Source: Octopus vulgaris (taxonomy: Eukaryota). Taken from it: a stretch of DNA of 64,000 nt. The stretch is from the NCBI GenBank assembly GCA_951406725.2, contig OX597818.1, forward strand, positions 38,316,001 through 38,380,000. The letters are read 5' to 3'. Both the position numbers and the translations under genes were made by a program. Under the pieces are notes generated by a model, which worked only from the letters and a program-made list of their open reading frames with translations, was not told where the DNA came from and searched no databases. Below, in pieces: positions 11,695 through 64,000 of the stretch. Positions within the stretch are counted from its first letter, which is position 1; the number at the start of each line of letters is the position of its first letter.

Positions 11695-13619
11695 CATCAT
11701 CATCATCATCATTTAGCGTCCGTTTTCCATGCTAGCATGGGTTGGACGGTTCTACTGGGGTCTGTGAAGCCAGAAGGCTTCATCAGGCCCAGTCAAATCT
11801 GGCAGTGTTTCTACGGCGGGATGCCCTTCCTAACGCCAACCACTCCGTGAGTGTAGTGGGTGCTTTTTACGTGCCACCCGCACTGGTGCCAGACAGAGCT
11901 GGCAAACGGCCACGAACGGATGGTGCTTTTTATGTGCCACCGGCACGAGGGCCAGGCGAGGCTGGCAACGGACACGAAACGGGGCGGTGCTGGCAACGGT
12001 CGCGAAACGGAAAGTTCTCTTACATGCCACCGGCACTGGTAACACATCTGCAATTTCCATTGATCGATTTCGATTCTGATCCTCACTTGCCTCAATGGGT
12101 CTTCACAAGCAGAGTTTCGACATGCCACCGGCACTGGTAGCACATCCGCAATTTCCATTGATCGATTTCGATTCTGATCCTCACTTGCCTCAACACGTCT
12201 TCACAAGTAGAGTTTTGTGTCCCAAGAAGGGAAGGTATGCATACGTAGGCTGGCTCCATCCCATGTAGAAGGCCACGGGTTGTGGACTCACTTGTCCTGC
12301 CGGGTCTTCTCGCGCACAGCACACTTCCAGAGGTCTCGGTCTCTAGTCATTTCCTCAGTGAGACCTAAAGTTCGAAGGTCGTGCTTCACCACCTCGTCCC
12401 AGGTTTTCCTGGGTCTGCCTCTTCCACAGGTTCCCTCAACCGCTAGGGTGTGGCACTTTTTCACACAACTATCTTCATCCATTCTCGCCACATGACCATA
12501 CCAGCGCAAACGTCTCTCTTGCACACCACAACTGATGCTTCTTAGGTCCAGCTTTTCTCTCAAGGTACTTACACTCTGCCGAGTGTGAGTACCGGCATTA
12601 CACATCCATCGGAGCATACTGGCTTCATTTCTAGCGAGCTTACGCATATCCTCAGCAGTCACGGCCCATGTTTCACTGCCATGTAGCATGGCTGTTCGTA
12701 CACACGCATCATACAGTCTGCCTTTCACTCTGTGCGAGAGGCCTTTTGTCACCAGCAGAGGTAAGAGCTCTCTGAACTTTGCCCAAGCTATTCTTACTCT
12801 AGCAGTTACACTTTCAGCACACCCGCCCCCGCTGCTGACTTGGTCACCTAGGTAACGGAAACTATCAACTATTTCTAGTTTTTCTCCCTGGAAAGTGACG
12901 GAAGTTGGTCTCAGAGCATTTTCAGTGTTTATTGTTCCTGAGCATCTGCCACATACAAAAACCATCTTCCTAGTTAGCCTTCCTTTGACATTGCTGCATC
13001 TCTTATGTGTCCATAGCTTACACTTGGTGCATCTTATAGAGTTTCTACCTACACCTTTTCTACAGATCGAGCAGGGCCATCTACCTGAAGGTGTTTGTGA
13101 TTTGTCTACCTTCCTACTGATTACGACTTTGGTTTTAGCTAGATTGACTCTGAGGCCCTTCGATTCTAATCCTTGTTTCCACACCTGAAACTTCTCCTCC
13201 AGTTCTGATAGCGACTCAGCAATTAGAGCAAGGTCATCAGCATAGAGGAGCTCCCAAGGGCATCCTGTCTTGAATTCCTCCGTTATTGCCTGGAGGACTA
13301 TGATAAATAGGAGGGGGCTGAGTACTGAGCCTTGGTGGACCCCTACCTCTACCCGGAATTCTTCACTGTACTCATTTCCAACCCTCACCCTACTAGCAGC
13401 GTCCCTATACATGGCCCGCACAGCTCTCACTAACCATTCATCTATCCCTAGTTTTCTCATTGCCCACCAGATAAGGGATCGGGGGACCCTGTCGAAGGCT
13501 TTCTCCATGTCAACAAAAGCCAGGTACAGGGGCTTATCTTTGGCTAGGTATTTCTCCTGCAGCTGCCTTACCAGGAATATAGCATCAGTAGTACTTTTCC
13601 CTGGCACAAACCCAAACTG
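11695..13619 (-). mobile_element. Young 5'-truncated RTE-clade LINE in the INTS12 intron between coding exons 3 and 4 (same strand as the gene)
   Basis: Uninterrupted RT frame starting at QFGFVPG, about 590 nt of 3' UTR and a (GAT)n tail. No clear TSD seen. Confidence 0.92.
12288..13607 (-). CDS. RTE reverse transcriptase ORF (N-terminally truncated, 439 codons) with an internal PHD-type zinc finger
   Basis: FVDMEKAFD, GVHQGSVLSPLLF, YADD and FRYLG motifs, plus the RTE-typical RRLRWYGHVAR..GRGRPRKTW C-terminus. The endonuclease is missing, so it is non-autonomous. Confidence 0.85.
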   Translation of the reverse strand: MPGKSTTDAIFLVRQLQEKYLAKDKPLYLAFVDMEKAFDRVPRSLIWWAMRKLGIDEWLVRAVRAMYRDAASRVRVGNEYSEEFRVEVGVHQGSVLSPLLFIIVLQAITEEFKTGCPWELLYADDLALIAESLSELEEKFQVWKQGLESKGLRVNLAKTKVVISRKVDKSQTPSGRWPCSICRKGVGRNSIRCTKCKLWTHKRCSNVKGRLTRKMVFVCGRCSGTINTENALRPTSVTFQGEKLEIVDSFRYLGDQVSSGGGCAESVTARVRIAWAKFRELLPLLVTKGLSHRVKGRLYDACVRTAMLHGSETWAVTAEDMRKLARNEASMLRWMCNAGTHTRQSVSTLREKLDLRSISCGVQERRLRWYGHVARMDEDSCVKKCHTLAVEGTCGRGRPRKTWDEVVKHDLRTLGLTEEMTRDRDLWKCAVREKTRQDK

Positions 13620-13747
13620 TTTTAAATAATTTAAATAATTATAATATAGTAAATTATAATTATTTAAAGTTCTTACAAACTTCTAATACAATGAAATAAA
13701 GTATATGTTGATAATATAGTGGAGTCAGTCAAATTGATGATTGTCTT

Positions 13748-16670: not shown

Positions 16671-17403
16671 GAGCACCATGAAATGTTTTATAGATCAACT
16701 TGGTTTGTACAGGACTGGTTTCAGGTTCAATCCCACAGCTTAACACATTGGGCGAGTGTCTTCTACTACAGTCCTGGGCTGACCAATGCATTCTAAGTTG
16801 ATTTGGTAAACAGAAACTGAAAGAATCCCCTTGTATATGCACATATATGCATAGATATGAGTATTTATATGCATGAGTGTGTGCACGTTCATGTGTGTGT
16901 GTTTACTTGTCTTAGCATCGCACCATACAAACTGTGCCATCCATTTCCAATATTCTACAAAAACATATCTGGTCATGGAGAAATATTACCTAGCTTGGAA
17001 ACAGGTGAGGGTGAGCAGCAGGAAGGACATCCAGCCGTAGAAAATTTGCTTTGTCCAACCCATGCAAATATGGAAAAGCAGATATTAAAAAATGACCGCC
17101 GCCCCGACTGGCCTCATGCCGGTGGCATGTAAAAAGCACCATCTGATCGTGGCCATTTGCCAGCCTCGTCTGGCACCTGTGCCGGTGGCATGTAAAAAGC
17201 ACCCACTACACTCACGGAGTGGTTGGCGTTAGGAAGGGCATCCAACCGTAGAAACATTGCCAGATCAGTCTGGGCCTGGAGCAGCCTTCTGGTTTCCCAG
17301 ACCCCAGTTGAACCGTTCAACCCATGCTAGCATGGAAAGCGGACGCTAAACGATGATGATGATGATGATGATGATAACAAGGAACAATTTCAAAGATACT
17401 TAC

Positions 17404-17768
17404 TGACAGTTAACACATGCTATACCAAGATCAAGAATAAAATCAGCAGTGTCCATATTATCATCACTGGAACCTAAAGCTTCTGGTTCCTTGAAAGAAG
17501 ATGATTTCTCAACAACCACTGCTGATTTTTCTGTCTTTTCTGCAGTTGCTGCCGTCGCAGCAGCTTTTTCTGACATAGCCTTTTCTCTCCTTTCCTTGTC
17601 TTCTTTATCTTTCAGTTCACGTTCTTTTCTACTCCTTTCTTTCTCTCGTTCTTTTTCCATCTCTCGCTCTTTCTCTTTATTCGGTTTTTCTTCCTTCTCT
17701 AGTGACGAAAATAAATCCAGTCTAGGTTTCTTGCTTTCTTGAAGAGTTTCCATGAAGTCATGTTTCAC
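17404..17768 (-). CDS. INTS12: INTS12 coding exon 2 (charged linker to start of PHD)
   Basis: ttcag acceptor and gtaagt donor, 365 nt, phase 0/2. Encodes VKHDFMETLQ...DFILDLGIACVNC, matching the INTS12 DF-..-.G-ACV.C motif. Confidence 0.92.
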
Positions 17769-19092
17769 CTGAAGAATAAAATATGAAAACAACCTAAGAA
17801 TTAAACAAAATATGCAAAGCAACCTTGAAGAACCCCATCTCCTAAATTTGAAGACCAATACAGCTGGTGTATAATTATACTCATAGGTGCTGGTGGCACA
17901 TAAAAAGCACCAGCCGATTGTGGCCATCTCAGTTAATCTACATCATCCCGATAATCTTCCTTATGTTTGTAAGCTCTAAGATGACTCTTAAGACCTGATA
18001 ACCTGCAAGGCTTCAAACATGTGACAGATAAGATACGAAACTTCAACATGGTTTATATAGCTTACTTGTGATATAATAATTTTATCCACTTTCATGTGCC
18101 TTTTCACACTAGGATTACTCCAAAAGATTTTTCTTCACATACTACACAGACATGACCATAAAAAGGGGCAAATAACTGTTTGATGCAGCATAATTTTGCA
18201 AATTGCTGTGTGATTTCATGTGGCATATGTAACCAGCTTTTGATAGATGTCAATCACAAAGACTACATTTCCAACTCTTAACCTCATCTGGTATGTCCAT
18301 GATGCCTACCTTTTTCAGAATACATTTTAACTGCATGCCACCTTATGGCTAACTCAAAACAAGCAATACCTTCCTTCACCAGAGACCTCCAGTCATTTCT
18401 ATCAATTGTTTTCTCTTGTCAGAATTGAACATCTATTTTCAAATTCACTAAGGTTCAACGAATAGTCTGTATAACAAGTTTTTTTGGGGGGAGTGGGGCT
18501 TATGCTGTGGTCATTTTCCCGGCTGTACCTCCCCATAAAATAACTGCTTGGGTGGTCCCAAAGCTGGCATACCAACAAGATACTCTGTCCATTGCATTTG
18601 ATTTGATATCATGTATGACTCAGTAGACAGGATCTACACAATAGTACATACATACAAATATAGTGTTCAAATGATTTAAACTTAGACTCCAATGTTCTTA
18701 CAAGGAACCAATTTTACAGGGTAAAGAGTTGTCCCTTGTAAAGACATTGCAGAATTGGTCTTTCGTAAAAACATCAGAGTCTAAGTTTGAATGAAAATGA
18801 ATAGATGTTTTTTTGAGTGTTAAAACTGACAGAATCAACGGGGTATTCAGTTACCAGTCAATAGGTTGACCCATCAAGTACTACATCTTCTTAGTAAAGA
18901 TACTTATATGATAATTGCCATTTCAGCCTAGTGTAAATAAGAACAATATAAGTAATTAATGACTGTAGATTGTATCAACAGGGTCATTGTATAAATGATT
19001 TGTATTTTGTTAGGCTGAAGTTGTTGAGATTAAATTTTTTATAGACTAAAAGAAGGCAACAAGAAACCACTCTAGCATGTTATGTCACTTAA

Positions 19093-20024: not shown

Positions 20025-20807
20025 TTTATTTGGGAGCCTGAAATTAGAAGATTAATTAGAAGTGAGAAGAATTTTTAACAAACAAAAGATCATCAACATA
20101 ATTTAATACAACTATAAATAACATATGTGTGTTCAAATTCCGCCAAGGTCGACTTTGCCTTTCATCCTTTCGGGGTCGATAAATTAAGTACTAGTTATGC
20201 ATTGGGGTCGATGTAATCGACTTAATCCCTTTGTCTGTCCTTGTTTGTCCCCTCTGTGTTTAGCCCCTTGTGGGCAATAAAGAAATAAATAACATATGTG
20301 TGTCATTTGAAAGTGGAGAGGCCAGCATGTCTAGTGGATTATGAAAGGATACTGGCAAGATATAGGATCACCCAAATTGGTAAGAGTGAGAACAAGAAAC
20401 CAGATAAAGCTAAAGACTACAAAAGGGTGTTTTAACACATTCTGTAATAATTACATAAGTCTAAAACTGGCCTCAGAGTAACCAGTAAACAATCTCTAAA
20501 TAAAGAATAAAGTTACCTCAATATCTCTTCCTAATACAGGATCATAAAACCAAAGTACAAAACAGCCAGAGTATTGTAATATTAATTAATGTTTTGGAAG
20601 GCATTAATAAATCTCCGAACGAGATGTAAACAGTAACCGCTCGACAACGTAAAGTGTACTAGCCATCTCAATGTGGCTAGCCACTGGGGGTGGGTGTTAC
20701 TGAAGCTTTTAGTCCCAGGAGATCATCGTCTCCAGCTGGCTTTAGACACACTTTCTGTGCCCTTCTGATATTCGCAAAGGGAGGTCATCCCCTCTCGAAA
20801 AACCAAA

Positions 20808-20866
20808 GTGATATATACAGACTATAGTTTCGAGGTTTTTGCCTTTCGTCAACGTATGGTAATCAC
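20808..20866 (-). ncRNA. Type I hammerhead ribozyme (U3.G8 core), family 1, minus copy
   Basis: GTGAT TAC CATACG TTGACGA AAGG CAAAAA CCTC GAAAC TATA GTC TGTATA T ATCAC. One mismatch each in stems I and II. Confidence 0.7.
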
Positions 20867-21019
20867 CAGTTTTCGATTTACGTTGTCGAGCAGTTACTGT
20901 TTACATCTTGTTCAGAGATTTATTAATGCTTTCAGACAGTTTTTCTAAATCAGTGACAGTGGTTGCTGGGAAAAACATTAAATAGATATTCGCAAACAGG
21001 TCTCCCCAATTGAAAACCG

Positions 21020-21078
21020 GTGATTACCATATGTTGACGAGAGGCAAAAACCTCGAAACTATAGTCCGTATGTATCAC
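21020..21078 (+). ncRNA. Type I hammerhead ribozyme (U3.G8 core), family 1, plus copy
   Basis: GTGAT TAC CATATG TTGACGA GAGG CAAAAA CCTC GAAAC TATA GTC CGTATG T ATCAC. All stems pair. Predicted cleavage after C21066. Confidence 0.8.
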
Positions 21079-22844
21079 TTAGGTTTTTCAAGAGGGGATG
21101 ACCTCCCTTTGAGAATATCAGAAGGGCACAGAAAGTGTGTCTAAAGCCAGCTGGAGACGATGATCTCCTGGGGCTAAAAGCTTCAGTAACACCCACCCCC
21201 AGTGGCTAGCCACATTGAGATGGCTAGTACGCTTTACGTTAAATTAATGTTTTGTTCTCTTGGAATACTGAACTCAATCACATAAAAACAAGAATTTAAG
21301 TGTTGAAGAAGTATCATCATCATCATCATCATCTTTTAACATCCTCTTTCCATGCTGGCATGGGTTGGATGGTTTAACTGATGACTGGCAAGCCAGGAGG
21401 CTGCACCAGACTCCAATCTATTCTGGCATGGTTTCTACAGCTGGATGCCCTTTCTAACAGCAACCACTCCAAGAATGTAGTGGGTGCTTTTTATGTGCCA
21501 CTGGCATAGGGGCCAGTCAGGTGGTACTGGCATCGACCATGCTTGAATGGTGCTTTTTACGCCATGCCAAACTAAATAATATGAAAATAAATATGGTGAT
21601 GAAATCATCATCATCATCATCGCTTGGTCTGTCTGTTACCATGACGACTGTTCCAGTCGATCCAATCAACTGAACGTCCTGATTGAGAAATTAATGTGCA
21701 AGTGGCTGAGCATGCCACAGACATGCATATCCTTCACATAGTTCTCAGGAAGATTCAGTGTGACACAGAATGTGACAAAGCGGTCTTCATAAGTTATTAT
21801 GATGATTGAATGCGGATCCCTATGACCCCAGGAGATAAAGCTGATCATTAAATGAGTCCTGGCAAGGGTAAGTATCCCCTCAATTCTGAAGGCAGTGGAT
21901 TGTTCAATGATGATAGGAAAACACCCAAAGAACTTGCTCTTTACCTTTGGGGTTAGAGACAGATACTGCATACAAAGCATTGTTAGCAACTCTTTTGCTC
22001 CATTACAATTCCTTAATACTGTTGAGCCAATGAGGAAGCATCTACTTGGTCATTCTACCTGCTAGAAATAGAAGCCAAAATTCCTTCAAATCAATGCTAT
22101 TGCCCTAAAAAAAAAAGGCAACAACACATTAAGCTATATAGTACTAGACATCCCTAAAAAGACAGAAAGGTCACAAATGGGATGTTTTTGATCATAGGTC
22201 TCTCCAACCAGGGCTAATATAGGACTAAACATCAGAAGGGATGACTGCATCTGAACTGAATAAGACACTGAAATACTGTAATCTGTTGATAAATTACATA
22301 CAGCCTAAGGCTTTTGAGATGTTCAGGTGGGGAGCTAGACCTCAGACAAAGAGGTTTTTGACTTCGTTTGGATCTCTGAAGTGAAATATGATGTTCAGAA
22401 GAGTGTCCAGCTGTTCTAATACCCTAACTTCACAGTCACCAGTAGGTTTGGCTGTTCTAAAACCTCAACCTCACAATCACTTGCAGTAATGCTGTGAGAG
22501 TTTTAGGTTGTCTGAAAAATATTTTAGTGTCCTTTTGAACAATGAAGGAATGTGCACGCCTCTCTTTGATCATTGACTGATTTCATGCTTTTTCTATTTA
22601 TTCCTTTTCTTACTGGCAGAAACGTTAGCACGCCGGGCGAAATGCTTAGCAGTATTTCGTCTGCCGCTATGTTCTGAGTTCAAATTCCGCCAAGGTTTAC
22701 TTTGCCTTTCATCCTTTCGGGGTTAATAAATTAAGTACCAGTTACACACTGGGGGTTGATGTAATCGACTTAATCCGTTTGTCTATCCTTGTTTGTCCCT
22801 TCTGTATTTAGCCCCTTGTGGGTAGTAAAGAAATAGATAATTTT

Positions 22845-36216: not shown

Positions 36217-37443
36217 AATGATATATATTTCATAAAATTTATCTTGTCAAATTAACTGCTTTCAGTTTGACATTTATACAGAGATAGTCGAAAGTAATGA
36301 TGTCTCCATGACAATATTTGGTAAGGTAAGGAATTTTGTAGCAGTCACCTGGAAGTGATAATGGTGAGAGGTGGTGGTGATGTGTTTAGTTGCTAAGGAG
36401 ACTTAAGCATTTAGAACAATATAAGTGAAAGGAAAGACATAGACGAATCTGTTTGCTTCACTTATATTTAGCACAGCTTCTATTTCCCATCTCCCTTGAA
36501 GTCAGTTTGGCAAATTATATACATTGCTGACAATTACCGGTTATGGATAGTTAAGCAGAAAATGGAAATATTCTGTGGGGAAAGAAAAGCTGTAAAATAT
36601 ATTATTCTTCATAACGCACTAATCTCTCTCTATCTTTTCTTTTTTTTTTTTTCTTGACTGTCCAACCCTTACCTGTATGGAATAAAAAATTGTGATGATA
36701 TTGATTATTTTACCTGTATGTGAAATAACTTAACTCTCTGTTTTTCTTTTTTTGTTCAACAAATATTCAGCTACAAAATTTGTAGACTTCATTTCATTTC
36801 TACTTTTTAACATTGTATAATATTAATGACAACATACTCCAGTCTGATGCATTATATTGTCAGCACTAGCTGAATGCTGTCATACTTTGACTGATGCTGC
36901 ATGTAATATAGTACATTGCTCCACCTAAAGGGTAGCAACATGTGGAATAAGACACTATAATTAAAAAACAAAACCATAGACTGACTTTACATGACAAATT
37001 ATTGTATGGCCTATATCACTGTATCAAACAAACTATCAGATGTTATACACCACTGGTTACAATGCACTTCTCTGCATTGGTATAGCTATCAAATAATGTC
37101 ATCCCATTGGCTAGGCAAGCAGGCCAACATTCCCCTTGATTGGAATGCCAGTCTGTCACAGGGTTAACCATTTACAGCTGAGTGGACTGAAGCATCATGA
37201 AATGAAGTGTCTTGCTTAAGAACACAACATGCTGCTGGTCTGGGAATCAAAACCATGATCACATAACCTATAAAGACAAACAAATATTTATGACTGACTT
37301 AACTCTATTAAGAATCTTATATTATTGTAACCTTACTGAGAGACAGCCATCATCTTACCATTTGAAAAATTTTGTGGTGGGGGTAGTTTTTTTTAATCTT
37401 TTGTTGCCTTGTATAAAACTAGTTTTTATTTGATTATTTACAG

Positions 37444-37548
37444 TATACTTTTCTTGGCCCAGTCTTACTGGACCCAGCTGGATTCTCCTTGGTCACATCA
37501 CTAATATTAAACCAAGTGCCATCTTTAAAGTATCTAAATTAAAATCAA
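37444..37548 (+). CDS. HIKESHI: HIKESHI exon 3
   Basis: ttacag acceptor and gtaagt donor, 105 nt, phase 1/1. Encodes [35 protein letters not shown] (conserved W-LLG--TN-KPSAIFK). Confidence 0.95.
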
Positions 37549-37909
37549 GTAAGTTTCCTTTTGTTAGTGGTCTATATTATTTTTCTGTTTTTTCAGTGTT
37601 TTATATTTAGTATGTAAGAATAGTGATGGATAATTGCCTCTTTTAACCATGAAAATTGGAACCTGTGTCAAAAATGTTGAAAGTGAACTATATTCAGCAT
37701 GAGAAATTACTACCAGTATCCAAGTTTTGAACTGTTTAGTTAAAAAAAAATAATTTAAAAAATCTGTGAGTGAAACTATAACGATCCATATTTTCTTTAT
37801 CTGTTCAAAACATGCTTGTTATAGCATCTTAAGTTTATTATTGTTTTTGACAAGACTTTACTTCTCAACATACTTTTTGATCTAAATTTCTTTCCTTATT
37901 TTATTTCAG

Positions 37910-38223
37910 CGGAAGCATCTCTAAATCCATTTGGAGTTATGGCGAGTCAACCAGTAAATGTATCACAAATTGGAATATCTGTTGAACCACTTCAAGACTT
38001 ATCTCAGCAGACACCTGCAACATCTGCAGCAGTGTCAAACCTTGAACCATTTATGGATTTCTCAAAGAAAATGGTTGAAAATCTGTTCAATTTTGCTTCG
38101 TCATTTGCTTCTAAAACTCCTATGAATCCATCCGAATCATATATTCCATTTAGTACTCTTGAAAAGTGGTACAATAACTTTCTTCGAAAGATGGAGCAAG
38201 ATCCCTATTTCTGGCGATCGTAG
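37910..38223 (+). CDS. HIKESHI: HIKESHI exon 4 (last coding exon)
   Basis: tttcag acceptor. Encodes ..QIGISVEP..KMVENLFNFASSF..YIPFSTLEKWYNNFLRKMEQDPYFWRS*. Total CDS 579 nt, 192 aa. Confidence 0.95.
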
Positions 38224-48184: not shown

Positions 48185-49037
48185 CTGTTCACAAAAAAAA
48201 AATTTTTAATTTAAGATTAAATTGAAAGAAAAATGACAACTAGAAATTGTAAAAATTTTATAAACCCACTAAAATAAATTGTGATAAATAATTCTAAAAT
48301 TATCGCAATTCTTAAAATGAGCTTAGGTAAATATCTACTCACTTAAGCCCTTTGCTCAAAATGGTTTTTTAGGCCATCAGTGAGTTTTTCCTGCTGTTCT
48401 TAGACTCTGAGTTGTACCGTCCTTCCCATTTTATACATTGTCTTTATGTTCTTGAGGAAAAGCTTCCCTCTCTCTGATTATGCTGGTTTTGAATTGTCAT
48501 TGATGCTTTTGTAACTTTGTTTTCTCTTAAGTAGAGGTGTAAGCCCTACACAAACCCCATTTTGACCTTTGGGAAGATGGGGTCCATATTAGTCTGGCCT
48601 CTGTTATTTGACCTGTCCAACACAGGAGCCCTTCTGGGAGATTGCACTCTTCTGGTATAGCTCTCAGTGATCTGAACACCACAAAAAGGACAAGACTTTG
48701 TGTTGGAAGTCAATCTCTGGCTTACTTGATGCAGTTCATGAAATTTTTATTACATATATTATAATTAGAATGATAAGCAACAAACAACTTTTCAAATATT
48801 TTCATGTTTAGAACAACAGGAGCAAACGTGGCTGTATGGCAAGAAGTTTGCTTCTCCACCAGTGCTGGATTAACCATTAAGCAAAATAAGCACATGCTTA
48901 GGGCATCAAGGGAAGGGCGACTCCACAGAAATGGTAAATGGCTTACAGTACAAAAGAAATCACATTAAACTTGCTAAAATAATATTCAAAGTGTTTTATG
49001 TGATCAGAAATATAATTTCGAAATGTTCATGGTGTCA

Positions 49038-58261: not shown

Positions 58262-58294
<33 letters not shown>

Positions 58295-58295
58295 A

Positions 58296-58455
58296 ACACA
58301 AGCTGTTTATCTGCATCACTATCTCCATATCAACTCACCTGGATTTCTCTTATAGCCACTCTTTACCCCGTGGACCTAGTCTTCATGGGGTGTAAGTTCA
58401 AATCATTTAAACTTACACTTCTACATGTGTTCTATATTGAGCATTTAACCTGTTG

Positions 58456-58530
<75 letters not shown>

Positions 58531-58692
58531 CACAAGCTGTTTATCTGCATCACTATCTCCATATCAACTCACCTGGATTTCTCTTATAGCCACTCTTTAC
58601 CCCGTGGACCTAGTCTTCATGGGGTGTAAGTTCAAATCATTTGAACTTACACTTCTACATGTGTTCTATATTGAGCATTTCACCTGTTGATT
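58296..58692. repeat. Tandem duplication of an about 162-bp unit separated by (TA)n(GA)n
   Basis: 58296-58457 and 58530-58692 differ at only a couple of bases. Confidence 0.85.
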
Positions 58693-59537
58693 ATATATAT
58701 ATATATGCTTGTGTCCATATGTACATGGAGATAAAGGTATGTGTGCATGTGTATCTGAGCACATGCATGTGCCTTCATCTGTGTGTGTTTGAATGTACAT
58801 CTAAGCACACATATACACTCGTATAAGTATGGATGTATACACACAGATATATGGACATCACACACACAGATATATATGCCACCACATCTGCTCCTTCCCA
58901 CTTACCCCAGCCACACAACCAATTTCTTGTCCACCATGTGGTCGATTTCCTGCTCACTATGTGATATTTTCCAACTAATTGTTGTCCCTGAAATACTGAC
59001 ATCAAACTGTTATACGACATGACTTTTCTTGACCAATTGCAGGCTTAACATCCAGCAATAAACATTGACTTTCTTCAATCAAACTTTTATTCAGACCCCA
59101 ATGCCCAAAGACTAGCTATACACCTGAAACTCAGAGTACCAAGGTGTCTGAATCAAACTTTTGATCTATCTATCTATCTATATAACAATTTATATTAATG
59201 TTTTTTTAATAACGATTTGTATTCTTATCTTAAATGTATTGAATTTTATACTGTATATATGTATGTTATTATGGTTGTAGTTCTGTTAATTAAATAAAAC
59301 AAACATTCTAATATCCTAAAGCTGATAAACCAACTAATGTGTTTCTCCATTTTCTTATTTGTAATATAAATTAATGGTAAAATATTTCTTTACCTTCACC
59401 CATTTAATACAATAAGTGAGTTCATTGCATTGCAATTAAAAACACTTGTGTATTAATAATTTGGGTATTATACCAACAGTATATTGGATAAGTATTATCC
59501 CTTAGAGGGTTGGATCCACAACCCCTAACTCATTTGG

Positions 59538-60762: not shown

Positions 60763-61030
60763 GGTACTATTTAAGAAGAGTGTGCGCTCTCGCGTACTCG
60801 CGAATCCGTGCTAGCTAGTCGTGACTAGTCGATCCTTACTTTGTGTTTTATTTACTTTGTTTAAAAACTTATTTGTGTTTTATTTACTTTGTGTAAAAAA
60901 ATTATTTATTTTGTGTTTTATTTACTTTGCTAGGTAGTCGTTGTAGGATCGACCAGTCACGACTAGCTAGCGTGGATGTGCGAGTACGCCGCAAGTGCGT
61001 GCACCGGGACCACTCGTCTTAAATAGTACC
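60763..61030. mobile_element. Merlin-like MITE (third family)
   Basis: Long imperfect TIRs GGTACTATTTAAGA / TCTTAAATAGTACC, a perfect 9-bp TSD TGAATGTTT and internal TTTGTGTTTTATTTAC tandem repeats. Confidence 0.85.
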
Positions 61031-61376: not shown

Positions 61377-61378
<2 letters not shown>

Positions 61379-61588
61379 CACAATCAAGGAACGGCCATAA
61401 TAGGCCATTCACCCACTAGAAATAACAGCCAAAGCTTCAACCGCAAAATAACATTAATTCCGTAAACCAGGAGAAAATTAAAAAACATTTTTCTCCTGGT
61501 TTACGGAATAATGTTATTTTGCGGTTGAAGCTTTGGCTGTTATTTCTAGTGGGTGAATGGCCTATTATGGCCGTTCCTTGATTGTGAT
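61377..61588. repeat. Near-perfect palindrome, about 100-bp arms and 11-nt spacer
   Basis: 61377-61477 is the reverse complement of 61489-61588 except for one extra A. Confidence 0.92.
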
Positions 61589-62942: not shown

Positions 62943-62984
<42 letters not shown>

Positions 62985-63141
62985 GTTATCGCCATACTAA
63001 TATGGCATTCTTATAAAAATAAGAATAAAGCTGTCCGCTTATTAGCTCCATGAGGCCATCGCCTTAAGTTAGCTATTTGATACACAAACTGTATCCATAT
63101 AACCTTCGAACAAGGGAGGTCAGTCGCTCCACACTACTTGA

Positions 63142-63197
63142 CCGGTAGCTACAGACGCGTTTCGGGGTATTGCCCCTTTTCAATGCAGCGTAGCCAG
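63142..63197 (-). ncRNA. Type I hammerhead ribozyme (U3-A8 core), family 2, minus copy
   Basis: CTGGC TAC GCTGCA TTGAAAA GGGG CAATA CCCC GAAAC GC GTC TGTAGC T ACCGG. Confidence 0.8.
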
Positions 63198-63593
63198 ACC
63201 AGTAGGTGTCGCTTCTGACAATCTCTGTTCAAAGGTTTTATTTACCTAGCTTCGGTGGAATACATCCACTTGTTTTCAATAATAGAAATATTAAATATTA
63301 AAATTATTATAACCTTGTTCGAAGGTTATATGGATACAGTTTGGTTATCAAATAGCTAACTTAAGGCGATGGCCTCATGGAGCTAATAAGCGGACAGCTT
63401 TATTCTTATTTTTATAAGAATGCCATATTAGTATGGCGATAACTATTATTTTCCGGGAACGCTGCCGTTGTTCTCTTTTAGAGAGACTTAGTAATTTTAA
63501 TATTTCTATTATTGAAAACAAGTGGATGTATTCCACCGAAGCTAGGTAAATAAAACCTTTGAACAGAGATTGTCAGAAGCGACACCTACTGGT

Positions 63594-63649
63594 CTGGCTA
63601 CGCTGCATTGAAAAGGGGCAATACCCCGAAACGCGTCTGTAGCTGCCGG
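63594..63649 (+). ncRNA. Type I hammerhead ribozyme (U3-A8 core), family 2, plus copy
   Basis: CTGGC TAC GCTGCA TTGAAAA GGGG CAATA CCCC GAAAC GC GTC TGTAGC T GCCGG. All stems pair. Predicted cleavage after C63637. Confidence 0.82.
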
Positions 63650-64000
63650 TCAAGTAGTGTGGAGCGACTGACCTCCCTTGTTCGAAGGTTATATGGATAC
63701 AGTTTGTGTATCAAATAGCTAACTTAAGGCGATGGCCTCATGGAGCTAATAAGCGGACAGCTTTATTCTTATTTTTATAAGAATGCCATATTAGTATGGC
63801 GATAACTATTATTTTCCGGGAACGCTGCCGTTGTTCTCTTTTAGAGAGACTTAGTAATTTTAATATTTCTATTATATATATATAATTAATTGTTATCGCC
63901 ATATTAATATGGCATTCTTATAGATATAAGAATAATCACTGCCGCTGGTCAGCTCCATGAGGCCACCGCCTTAAGATAGCTATTGATACACACTGTTGTA

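Follow-up and report, generated by a model that had tools for sequence, protein, structure and literature searches.

A hammerhead retrozyme family of Octopus vulgaris with paired short and long insertion ends of the Penelope-like type

Introduction

The last kilobase of a 64,000-nt stretch of the Octopus vulgaris genome (contig OX597818.1, positions 38,316,001 to 38,380,000; hereafter the window, whose numbering is used below) contains direct and inverted copies of a short repeat carrying a hammerhead motif, set in (TA)n. The locus raises the question of what kind of element left such opposed copies, and from which template and by which enzyme they were made. An earlier note on this DNA had taken it for a recently active, non-autonomous ribozyme retroelement, probably moved by a Penelope-like element (PLE).

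Our reading, to which we give a probability of roughly 0.7, is that of a protein-free hammerhead retroelement that uses the reverse transcriptase (RT) and GIY-YIG endonuclease of a PLE, both cut TA ends being primed on one RNA, at two internal positions that are fixed and lie 63 nt from each other.

Two adjoining insertions at the right end of the window

On the left, the sequence begins with the (TA)n target run (62946..62981). It is followed by a minus-strand arm (62979..63300) that spans unit 180-363-1-137, and whose 3' end, at 62979, lies on CTATTAT. This is the short end (S), which has no tail. The head-to-head (5'-to-5') junction consists of about 12 nt of AT-rich filler (63301..63312). 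Beyond it lies a plus-strand arm of 563 nt (63313..63875) with 1.55 units (1-363, 1-200), the 3' end of which, at 63875, is likewise on CTATTAT. This is the long end (T). The 63-nt 'tail' that separates the two 3' ends is unit 138-200 (63813..63875, +). Immediately before it, unit 109-137 (63784..63812, +) holds a hairpin and the putative S priming site, with the CTATTAT of the site at 63806-63812 and also at 63443-63449 (+). Both this stretch and unit 165-224, around T, are identical in the majority sequences of the young and old subfamilies.

A short TA spacer (63876..63883), common to the younger and the older insertion, leads to a second, older-subfamily insertion (63884..64000, minus then plus, running past the window edge). 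It is two-armed, with one S end and one T end, and has no hammerhead. Its minus arm (63884-63996, 113 nt) runs from unit 139 to 24 at 85% identity. Its plus arm, a 48-nt forward piece of unit 155-200, starts after 63996 and crosses the window edge; inspection of the sequence to the right showed that it stops in (TA)n 42 nt outside.

The direct repeat described in the earlier note (63313/63676, period 363) was recovered over 200 nt at 99%, and so was the (TA)n setting, on the left of the locus and beyond the right edge. The near-identical inverted copy held at 99.4% over 322 nt against the plus arm, but it is an incomplete monomer that lacks unit 138-179. The 'more diverged inverted copy' is inverted, at 85%, but proved to be the hammerhead-less piece of the separate older insertion.

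The 363-nt unit has a GC content of 41%. As had been reported, it is ORF-less: no ORF of at least 120 aa overlaps the locus, and stops interrupt all six frames of the doubled unit. A resemblance of its minus-strand translation to the N-terminus of PLE ORF2 was faint and unsupported, and was set aside.

Each strand carries one hammerhead, and there is no same-strand pair. Because there is only one per strand, the locus, judged by its sequence, cannot itself release ribozyme-to-ribozyme, unit-length RNA. In a read-through transcript both ribozymes would be buried in a predicted hairpin of ~320 bp, which together with the single ribozyme per strand makes the locus an unlikely source. It is probably a daughter copy (a product) of a retrozyme family, dropped beside an older insertion, and a dead end rather than a source.

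Elsewhere in the window, the last exons of Hikeshi were recognized at 37443-38223 (+) by Pfam and a splice joint; the retrozyme locus lies ~25 kb downstream of the Hikeshi stop. An exon at 17400-17942 (-) may belong to INTS12, which it resembles, and a 464-aa LINE-type RT fragment with a PHD-like finger lies at 12288-13682 (-). A 234-nt tandem unit (58276-58706, 1.8 copies) in (TA)n(GA)n, in which no hammerhead was found, may be a further non-autonomous PLE passenger. An 80-bp perfect inverted repeat beside (TA)n (61377-61588) and a 45-bp inverted repeat around a short tandem (60792-60989) could each be a two-armed mini-insertion or a MITE.

A type I hammerhead with a U3-A8 core

The type I hammerheads lie at 63594..63649 on the plus strand (U3 = 63608, A8 = 63613, C17 = 63637) and at 63142..63197 on the minus strand (U3 = 63183, predicted cut after the C at 63154). 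The parts named in the earlier note (core TTGAAAA, stem II GGGG/CCCC, palindromic ACGCGT, and C17 at 63637 on the plus strand) were found on both arms. The plus-strand molecule has a 6-bp stem I followed by a TAC/T bulge and a distal stem, a 4-bp stem II with a 5-nt loop, and a 1-bp stem III with a palindromic loop, which is predicted to need dimer formation.

A strict hammerhead descriptor gave two matches in the 64 kb, with U3 at 63608 (+) and 63183 (-). A looser one added family 1, a second hammerhead family, at 21034, and one chance-like match at 49000. The ribozyme region was more stable than its shuffled versions (z = -3.7, 0/200 shuffles as stable), and so was the whole 363-nt unit (z = -6.5, equalled by 0/100 shuffles).

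The hammerhead consensus comprises a 3-8 Watson-Crick pair, G5, A6, A9, G12-A14, A15.1-U16.1 and H17 (PMC7151607). In the octopus ribozyme the 3-8 pair is U3-A8 in place of C3-G8, and the remaining positions are canonical. The Rfam hammerhead models gave no match at E<=1 over the whole window, or at E<=10 over 161-nt stretches. The swap is fixed in the family: G8 occurred in two copies, both of them U3.G8. No canonical C3-G8 ancestor was found in the genome under the flanks tested.

Type I hammerheads form a tertiary contact between loop II and the stem I bulge. The TAC/T bulge in stem I was nearly invariant in 19 aligned copies including family 1, which bears out the remark that the two families share it.

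For a test of selection, the majority sequences of the young and old subfamilies were compared on the fold of the young row alone, the old row being a mixture of subfamilies. They differed at 50 of 363 sites and at none of 12 core positions. There were five two-sided compensations against 0.96 expected (p 0.002), and 8 broken pairs against 20 expected. The covariation score of the named structure in 19 real copies, whose kinship inflates it, beat 500/500 shuffles and all slid controls, and covariation was detected in stems I and II among family copies.

Stem III has stayed palindromic through sequence changes. It does not fold within one molecule, and a 6-bp self-duplex is predicted. This indicated dimeric cleavage, as in amphibian retrozymes (PMC7229834). 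On these comparisons, the ribozyme core and stems are under selection, and self-cleavage is predicted.

Family 1 (20636-21240) is a distant homologue of the present family, family 2 (score 104.5; 300 shuffles gave a mean of 45 and a maximum of 73.5). Its core has a U3.G8 wobble, fixed in 11/11 genome matches. Its copy in the window has two arms whose 3' ends are unequal, and lies outside (TA)n. A C3-G8 hammerhead is present in another resident PLE (L106). A stepwise core-swap path within one genome, from C3-G8 (L106) through U3.G8 (family 1) to U3-A8 (family 2), is likely from these sequences. Two other stretches, L144:277-440 and L152:5076-5317, hold additional retrozyme-like families akin to families 1 and 2.

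A young family without a constant PLE reading frame

In the 2.8 Gb of the genome surveyed, a 38-nt ribozyme pattern had 856 exact matches (reversed control 0). Of the first 100 matches listed, all but the last three were used; these 97 fell into 61 loci, or 1.6 matches per locus, from which ~540 young loci were estimated (856 / 1.6). An older set, which carries A at position 10.1 and has another palindrome, had 562 matches. Young copies differed by 2.0% from their majority and fell into at least six haplotypes.

At least two tandem same-strand ribozymes were present in 22/61 family loci, against 0 such pairs at the window locus. The prediction of a unit-length circle would therefore fit the family, not the window locus.

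Family repeat pieces were present in three runs of spliced RNA at modest summed depth, in assembled contigs that carry no ends, strand or level. That the runs are spliced RNA was seen from a GT..AG joint in Hikeshi nearby; circles may be lost in poly(A) selection. The contigs of the three runs gave no sign of very abundant family RNA.

The unit might instead be the pLTR of an undiscovered autonomous PLE, with the loci as its 5'-truncated ends. All the insertion features are indeed those of PLE ends, and most hammerheads of animal genomes sit in truncated PLEs (PMC4209133). However, constant linkage to a PLE ORF, which the earlier note had named as grounds for reclassification, was not seen: no shared junction to such an ORF occurred in 61 young and 50 older-subfamily stretches. 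Upstream of every ribozyme there was another 363-nt unit without an ORF, for up to 5.5 rounds, and the ribozyme is full-length, not minimal. This reading is largely refuted, and we consider it very improbable.

PLE fragments adjoined 4/84 young loci, and no two of these had a junction in common. The old-subfamily ribozymes that lie far apart (L186-L190), examined as candidate pLTR pairs, had no ORF between them. At L161:800-1040 and 1740-1960, an old-subfamily piece fused to an internally deleted PLE ORF2 N-terminus forms an inverted duplication.

With ~540 young loci, PLE-type ends and no constant ORF linkage, the proposal of a recently active non-autonomous hammerhead element moved by a PLE was sustained by the genome-wide survey. 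On the features that can be tested, the family, known here from sequence alone, is a non-LTR retrozyme with a PLE insertion signature.

Two fixed 3' ends and their pairing

The ends were scored at 84 young loci (22 top matches, 61 in genome order, and L133). Because every locus was found via the ribozyme region, a single crossing of the cut site is built in, and short arms are under-represented. The outer 3' ends fell in two windows in 133/145 cases: 65 at S (unit ~137) and 68 at T (unit ~200), 63 nt apart and both on CTATTAT. (TA)3 was found within 12 nt of 122/133 of these standard ends; such a setting would mask any target-site duplication.

Two arms were present at 61/84 young loci. In the 52 of these in which both ends were standard, the pairing was S+T in every case (52/52), with 0 S+S and 0 T+T (p = 2e-16 against a coin toss); 36/52 came from the loci in genome order, and the nine young two-armed loci with one non-standard end were left out. 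The older subfamilies gave S+T in 18/19 scorable two-armed loci, with 10/29 old loci left out. Partial tandems, head-to-head arms, a tail at one end and a microsatellite target were thus all present, as in a PLE-type insertion product.

The two arms of a locus were alike in haplotype. In 50 pairs (2/52, under 90% identity, were left out), they agreed in 276/283 comparisons of polymorphic sites, against 154 expected. The divergence was 0.78% between arms within a locus and 2.2% between loci. Differences private to one arm numbered 83 and shared rare ones 17; the persistence of the former shows that gene conversion is incomplete.

Arm lengths were uncorrelated (rho -0.12, p 0.42). The T arm ran past S in 49/52 pairs, and overlaps at the arm junction were mostly 0-7 nt. 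Single-armed loci comprised 12 with T and 8 with S. Alternative registers 3 nt apart occurred at both sites, S ends at 134/137 and T ends at 197/200, as would be expected if both ends were primed. The best reading of these sequences is that both arms came from one RNA template and were synthesized independently. Priming at S and T is probable; the end positions themselves were observed.

The main rival for the pairing rule is a single priming at T, after which the cDNA folds its 3' end back and serves as its own template. The endonuclease would then resolve the other end at S, and later asymmetric deletions at the palindrome centre would blur the lengths. S+T pairing and identical haplotypes would follow automatically, self-priming and endonuclease-mediated tail resolution have been proposed for PLEs (PMC3846280, PMC8557442), and the hot spot of junctions contains a palindromic hexamer (unit 6-11). 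Yet among 50 pairs, 16 fitted a fold-back from the T arm, 16 one from the S arm and 18 neither. The uncorrelated lengths also speak against it, as do the S ends that stand alone in eight single-armed loci and the 134/137 registers that mirror the 197/200 of T. We regard this course as improbable.

The RNA template

Arms longer than one unit were common (85/133; maximum 5.5 units), and 39/133 crossed the predicted cut site twice or more. The 5' ends, mapped on a multimer reference with fragments under 20 nt kept, showed no significant pile-up at the predicted cut site (7 against 4.0 expected, p 0.11). A cleaved linear monomer is not the template, because the arms are multi-unit and the cut site shows no enrichment of 5' ends.

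At unit 1-8 there were 15 5' ends against 2.9 expected. This pile-up could be an RNA 5' end, which would favour linear templates over a circle. The hot spot at unit 1-16 (63313-63328) also includes single-armed copies, and overlaps a 12-bp predicted stem and the palindromic hexamer; it may be a pause site or an RNA 5' end.

Adjacent units differed by 0.68%, and their haplotypes agreed in 566/580 comparisons. Rare alleles were in all copies of a locus in 11 cases, in one copy in 79 and in some copies in 8 (one of the 8 in matched register), the last mostly at loci with later local duplication. Such local tandem duplication after insertion was seen at L069 and L096. No inherited junction was shared among 50 loci. 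The junction and rare-allele evidence leans to a circle that was read repeatedly, with limited power against young homogeneous multimers.

The same PLE machinery and two-site priming could also have used a linear, uncleaved multimer from tandem loci, the hammerhead serving for release or trimming and circles being absent or by-products. A purified PLE worked mainly on uncleaved RNA and could do without the ribozyme in vitro (PMC11167929), a preference that keeps this alternative alive. The pile-up at unit 1-8 could be its transcription start, 8/9 Xenopus retrozyme dimers were uncleaved in vitro (10.64898/2026.07.22.740005), and the RNA data here, being contigs, are uninformative on circles. 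Against it stand the arms of up to 5.5 units, the lack of inherited junctions in 50 loci and the all-or-one rare alleles (of modest power if arrays are young and homogeneous), as well as the selection on the ribozyme core and stems. We consider such multimers an unlikely but serious candidate. Our analysis slightly favours circles as the main template, with uncleaved multimers as the alternative.

A candidate partner

A search of the genome for GIY-YIG yielded many intact frames of 781 aa, here called PLE-A. In the copy at L145:481-5272 (G000:C5:1040000-1046500), a 479-aa ORF1 lies upstream of, and overlaps in another frame, the 781-aa RT-endonuclease ORF2. ORF2 has an RT, a CX4CX2C linker and, at its C-terminus, GIY-YIG. 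PLEs of the Neptune/Nematis type are defined by an RT, a CX2-5CxxC linker and GIY-YIG at the C-terminus, the clade being assigned by RT phylogeny (PMC8557442). At the level of domains, PLE-A agrees with this type. Its named relatives come from bivalve-associated assemblies.

PLE-A is young (599 exact pLTR matches, 99% pairwise). It uses (TA)n targets, and has two 3' ends with a tail of ~30-40 nt that ends in CTATTAT like that of the retrozyme. Two-armed copies paired a tail end with a no-tail end in 9/9 scorable cases; two further loci (L206, L239) were unscorable, and five of the eleven had been chosen for inverted matches. The minimal hammerhead of PLE-A is of the U3-A8 kind, and in the core and stem III it matches the old retrozyme subfamily letter for letter. 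The two 3' ends of PLE-A lie inside a long predicted stem that takes in an ORF1 ATG.

Some observations ran against PLE-A as partner. Outside the ribozyme core and the end motif, no homology between the retrozyme unit and its terminal repeat was found by blastn or by a profile search of 50 PLE stretches. The two-armed share also differed, with 61/84 for the retrozyme against 7 inverted pairs among the first 100 PLE-A matches.

PLE-B (L289:1303-4662; G000:C1:35009500-35015500) is C-rich, young and intact, with an open frame of 1119 aa and 3147 exact pLTR matches. A single 3' end was seen in 20 loci, and 0 inverted pairs among the first 100 matches. The core of its minimal hammerhead is apparently changed, and was read as A6U or U3.G8. 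PLE-B is ranked below PLE-A, because of its one 3' end and the absence of inverted pairs in these samples. Other PLE lineages also occur in the genome. The young two-ORF PLE-A of L145 is rather likely to be the best partner.

Chimeric loci were rejected as proof of a partner. A retrozyme/PLE-A fusion (L133) is within chance, as ~0.1 secondary insertions are expected in 84 loci. Three loci adjoining PLE-B (L048, L090, L098) are compatible with secondary insertion and deletion.

The arrays could also have arisen at the DNA level, as a satellite, a fold-back or a rolling-circle DNA element, or as a fold-back artefact of assembly, with the ribozyme as a passenger. This would suit the tandem and inverted copies, set as they are in (TA)n, which is unstable, and also the local duplications at L069 and L096. 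It is countered by fixed 3' ends with ragged 5' ends, by unique flanks and junctions, by a strand-specific RNA structure with compensations, and by a pairing rule that matches an RT-encoding element. An assembly artefact is opposed by the many different head-to-head joints in a DNA run, which may be the assembly's own sample. We find amplification of this kind scarcely credible.

Discussion

The proposed course starts from loci with two tandem ribozymes, whose transcripts would undergo dimeric hammerhead self-cleavage and ligation to a 363-nt circle, as conservation and other retrozymes suggest. A PLE protein would bind the invariant S-T region of the RNA, and its endonuclease would cut a TA microsatellite. 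One DNA end would then prime within unit 134-140 (S) and the other within unit 197-200 (T), each by way of 2-3 nt of TA microhomology. Each reverse transcription would proceed independently, often for more than one round of the unit, in keeping with the observed arm lengths. The two cDNAs would be joined head-to-head via 0-7 nt of microhomology or filler, as in the observed joints, and extension of one end alone would give a single-armed copy. A purified PLE, predicted to be dimeric, cuts and extends both strands, and its two internal start sites delimit the tail (PMC11167929).

A broader version, which we hold tentatively and at somewhat less than even odds, is that PLE integration is intrinsically asymmetric: a dimeric RT-endonuclease, one RNA, one fixed site per DNA end and rolling-circle copying. 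The 363-nt ribozyme circle would then be the minimal cis-signal that hijacks it.

The family is like the animal non-LTR retrozymes (PMC7229834; 10.64898/2026.07.22.740005) in its ORF-less tandem unit (150-450 nt; 350-390 in mussel) of GC below 50%, in the full type I hammerhead with a weak palindromic stem III, and in the highly self-paired unit. There too, PLEs coexist in the genome, and mobilization by PLEs has been proposed. In those retrozymes circles have been shown; for the octopus family they are predicted. An 'active' retrozyme locus is defined as one with at least two consecutive ribozyme-bearing units (10.64898/2026.07.22.740005).

Unlike them, the octopus family is U3-A8 throughout, and is therefore missed by standard descriptors and Rfam; this shows that whole families of retrozymes can escape the usual hammerhead searches when their core is swapped. 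Its insertions are dispersed, of 1-5 units, and mostly two-armed. The retrozyme papers, in their accessible text, base the link to PLEs on co-occurrence and on similarity to pLTRs; priming sites at fixed positions, tails and paired ends are not described there. The octopus family has no detectable pLTR homology outside the core, but an explicit insertion signature.

Endonuclease-bearing PLEs (PMC3846280, PMC8557442, PMC11167929) likewise insert in (TA)n, with partial tandems, 5'-truncated arms that stand head-to-head, a tail at one end and two internal 3' ends. The tail of autonomous PLEs is described there as a 30-40-bp extension found 'optionally' or 'often' at one end, whereas in the octopus retrozyme it is 63 nt, belongs to a non-coding RNA, is strict (52/52) and is of one haplotype with the other arm.

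The U3-A8 core is already described, with the same covariation, in the minimal hammerheads of the Schistosoma mansoni PLE Cercyon (PMC4209133). Those hammerheads are minimal and sit in PLE terminal repeats, whereas the octopus ones are full-length, with an extended stem I, and sit in a retrozyme, paralleled by the minimal U3-A8 motif of PLE-A.

In LINE-1 twin priming, both target strands prime on one RNA, the 5' part is inverted and the parts are joined by microhomology. The second site is variable there, and each of the two cDNAs is a copy of another part of the RNA. In the octopus retrozyme, by contrast, both sites are fixed, and the tail arm recopies the stretch of the short arm in 49/52 pairs.

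The element class and the core swap thus have precedent; the strict end-pairing rule may be new. Such a rule, with same-template arms on a non-coding passenger, did not appear in the literature searched; most subscription papers lay outside it, as did supplements such as Fig. S2 of PMC11167929, and the rule may have been noted before.

The origin of the tandem and inverted ends and tails of PLEs has been called undefined (PMC8557442), and the enzyme and template of animal retrozymes have been argued from co-occurrence (10.64898/2026.07.22.740005; PMC7229834). A young, haplotype-marked, short passenger provides hundreds of natural insertion records on the geometry of PLE integration. The pairing rule makes both questions directly testable, since a 363-nt RNA with exactly predicted start sites can be combined with an intact protein of 781 aa and a TA target. 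If the reading is true, asymmetric two-site priming would explain the PLE tail, the inverted pLTR and the partial tandems by one rule, and this would be the first retrozyme with its priming sites and mobilizing enzyme pinned down.
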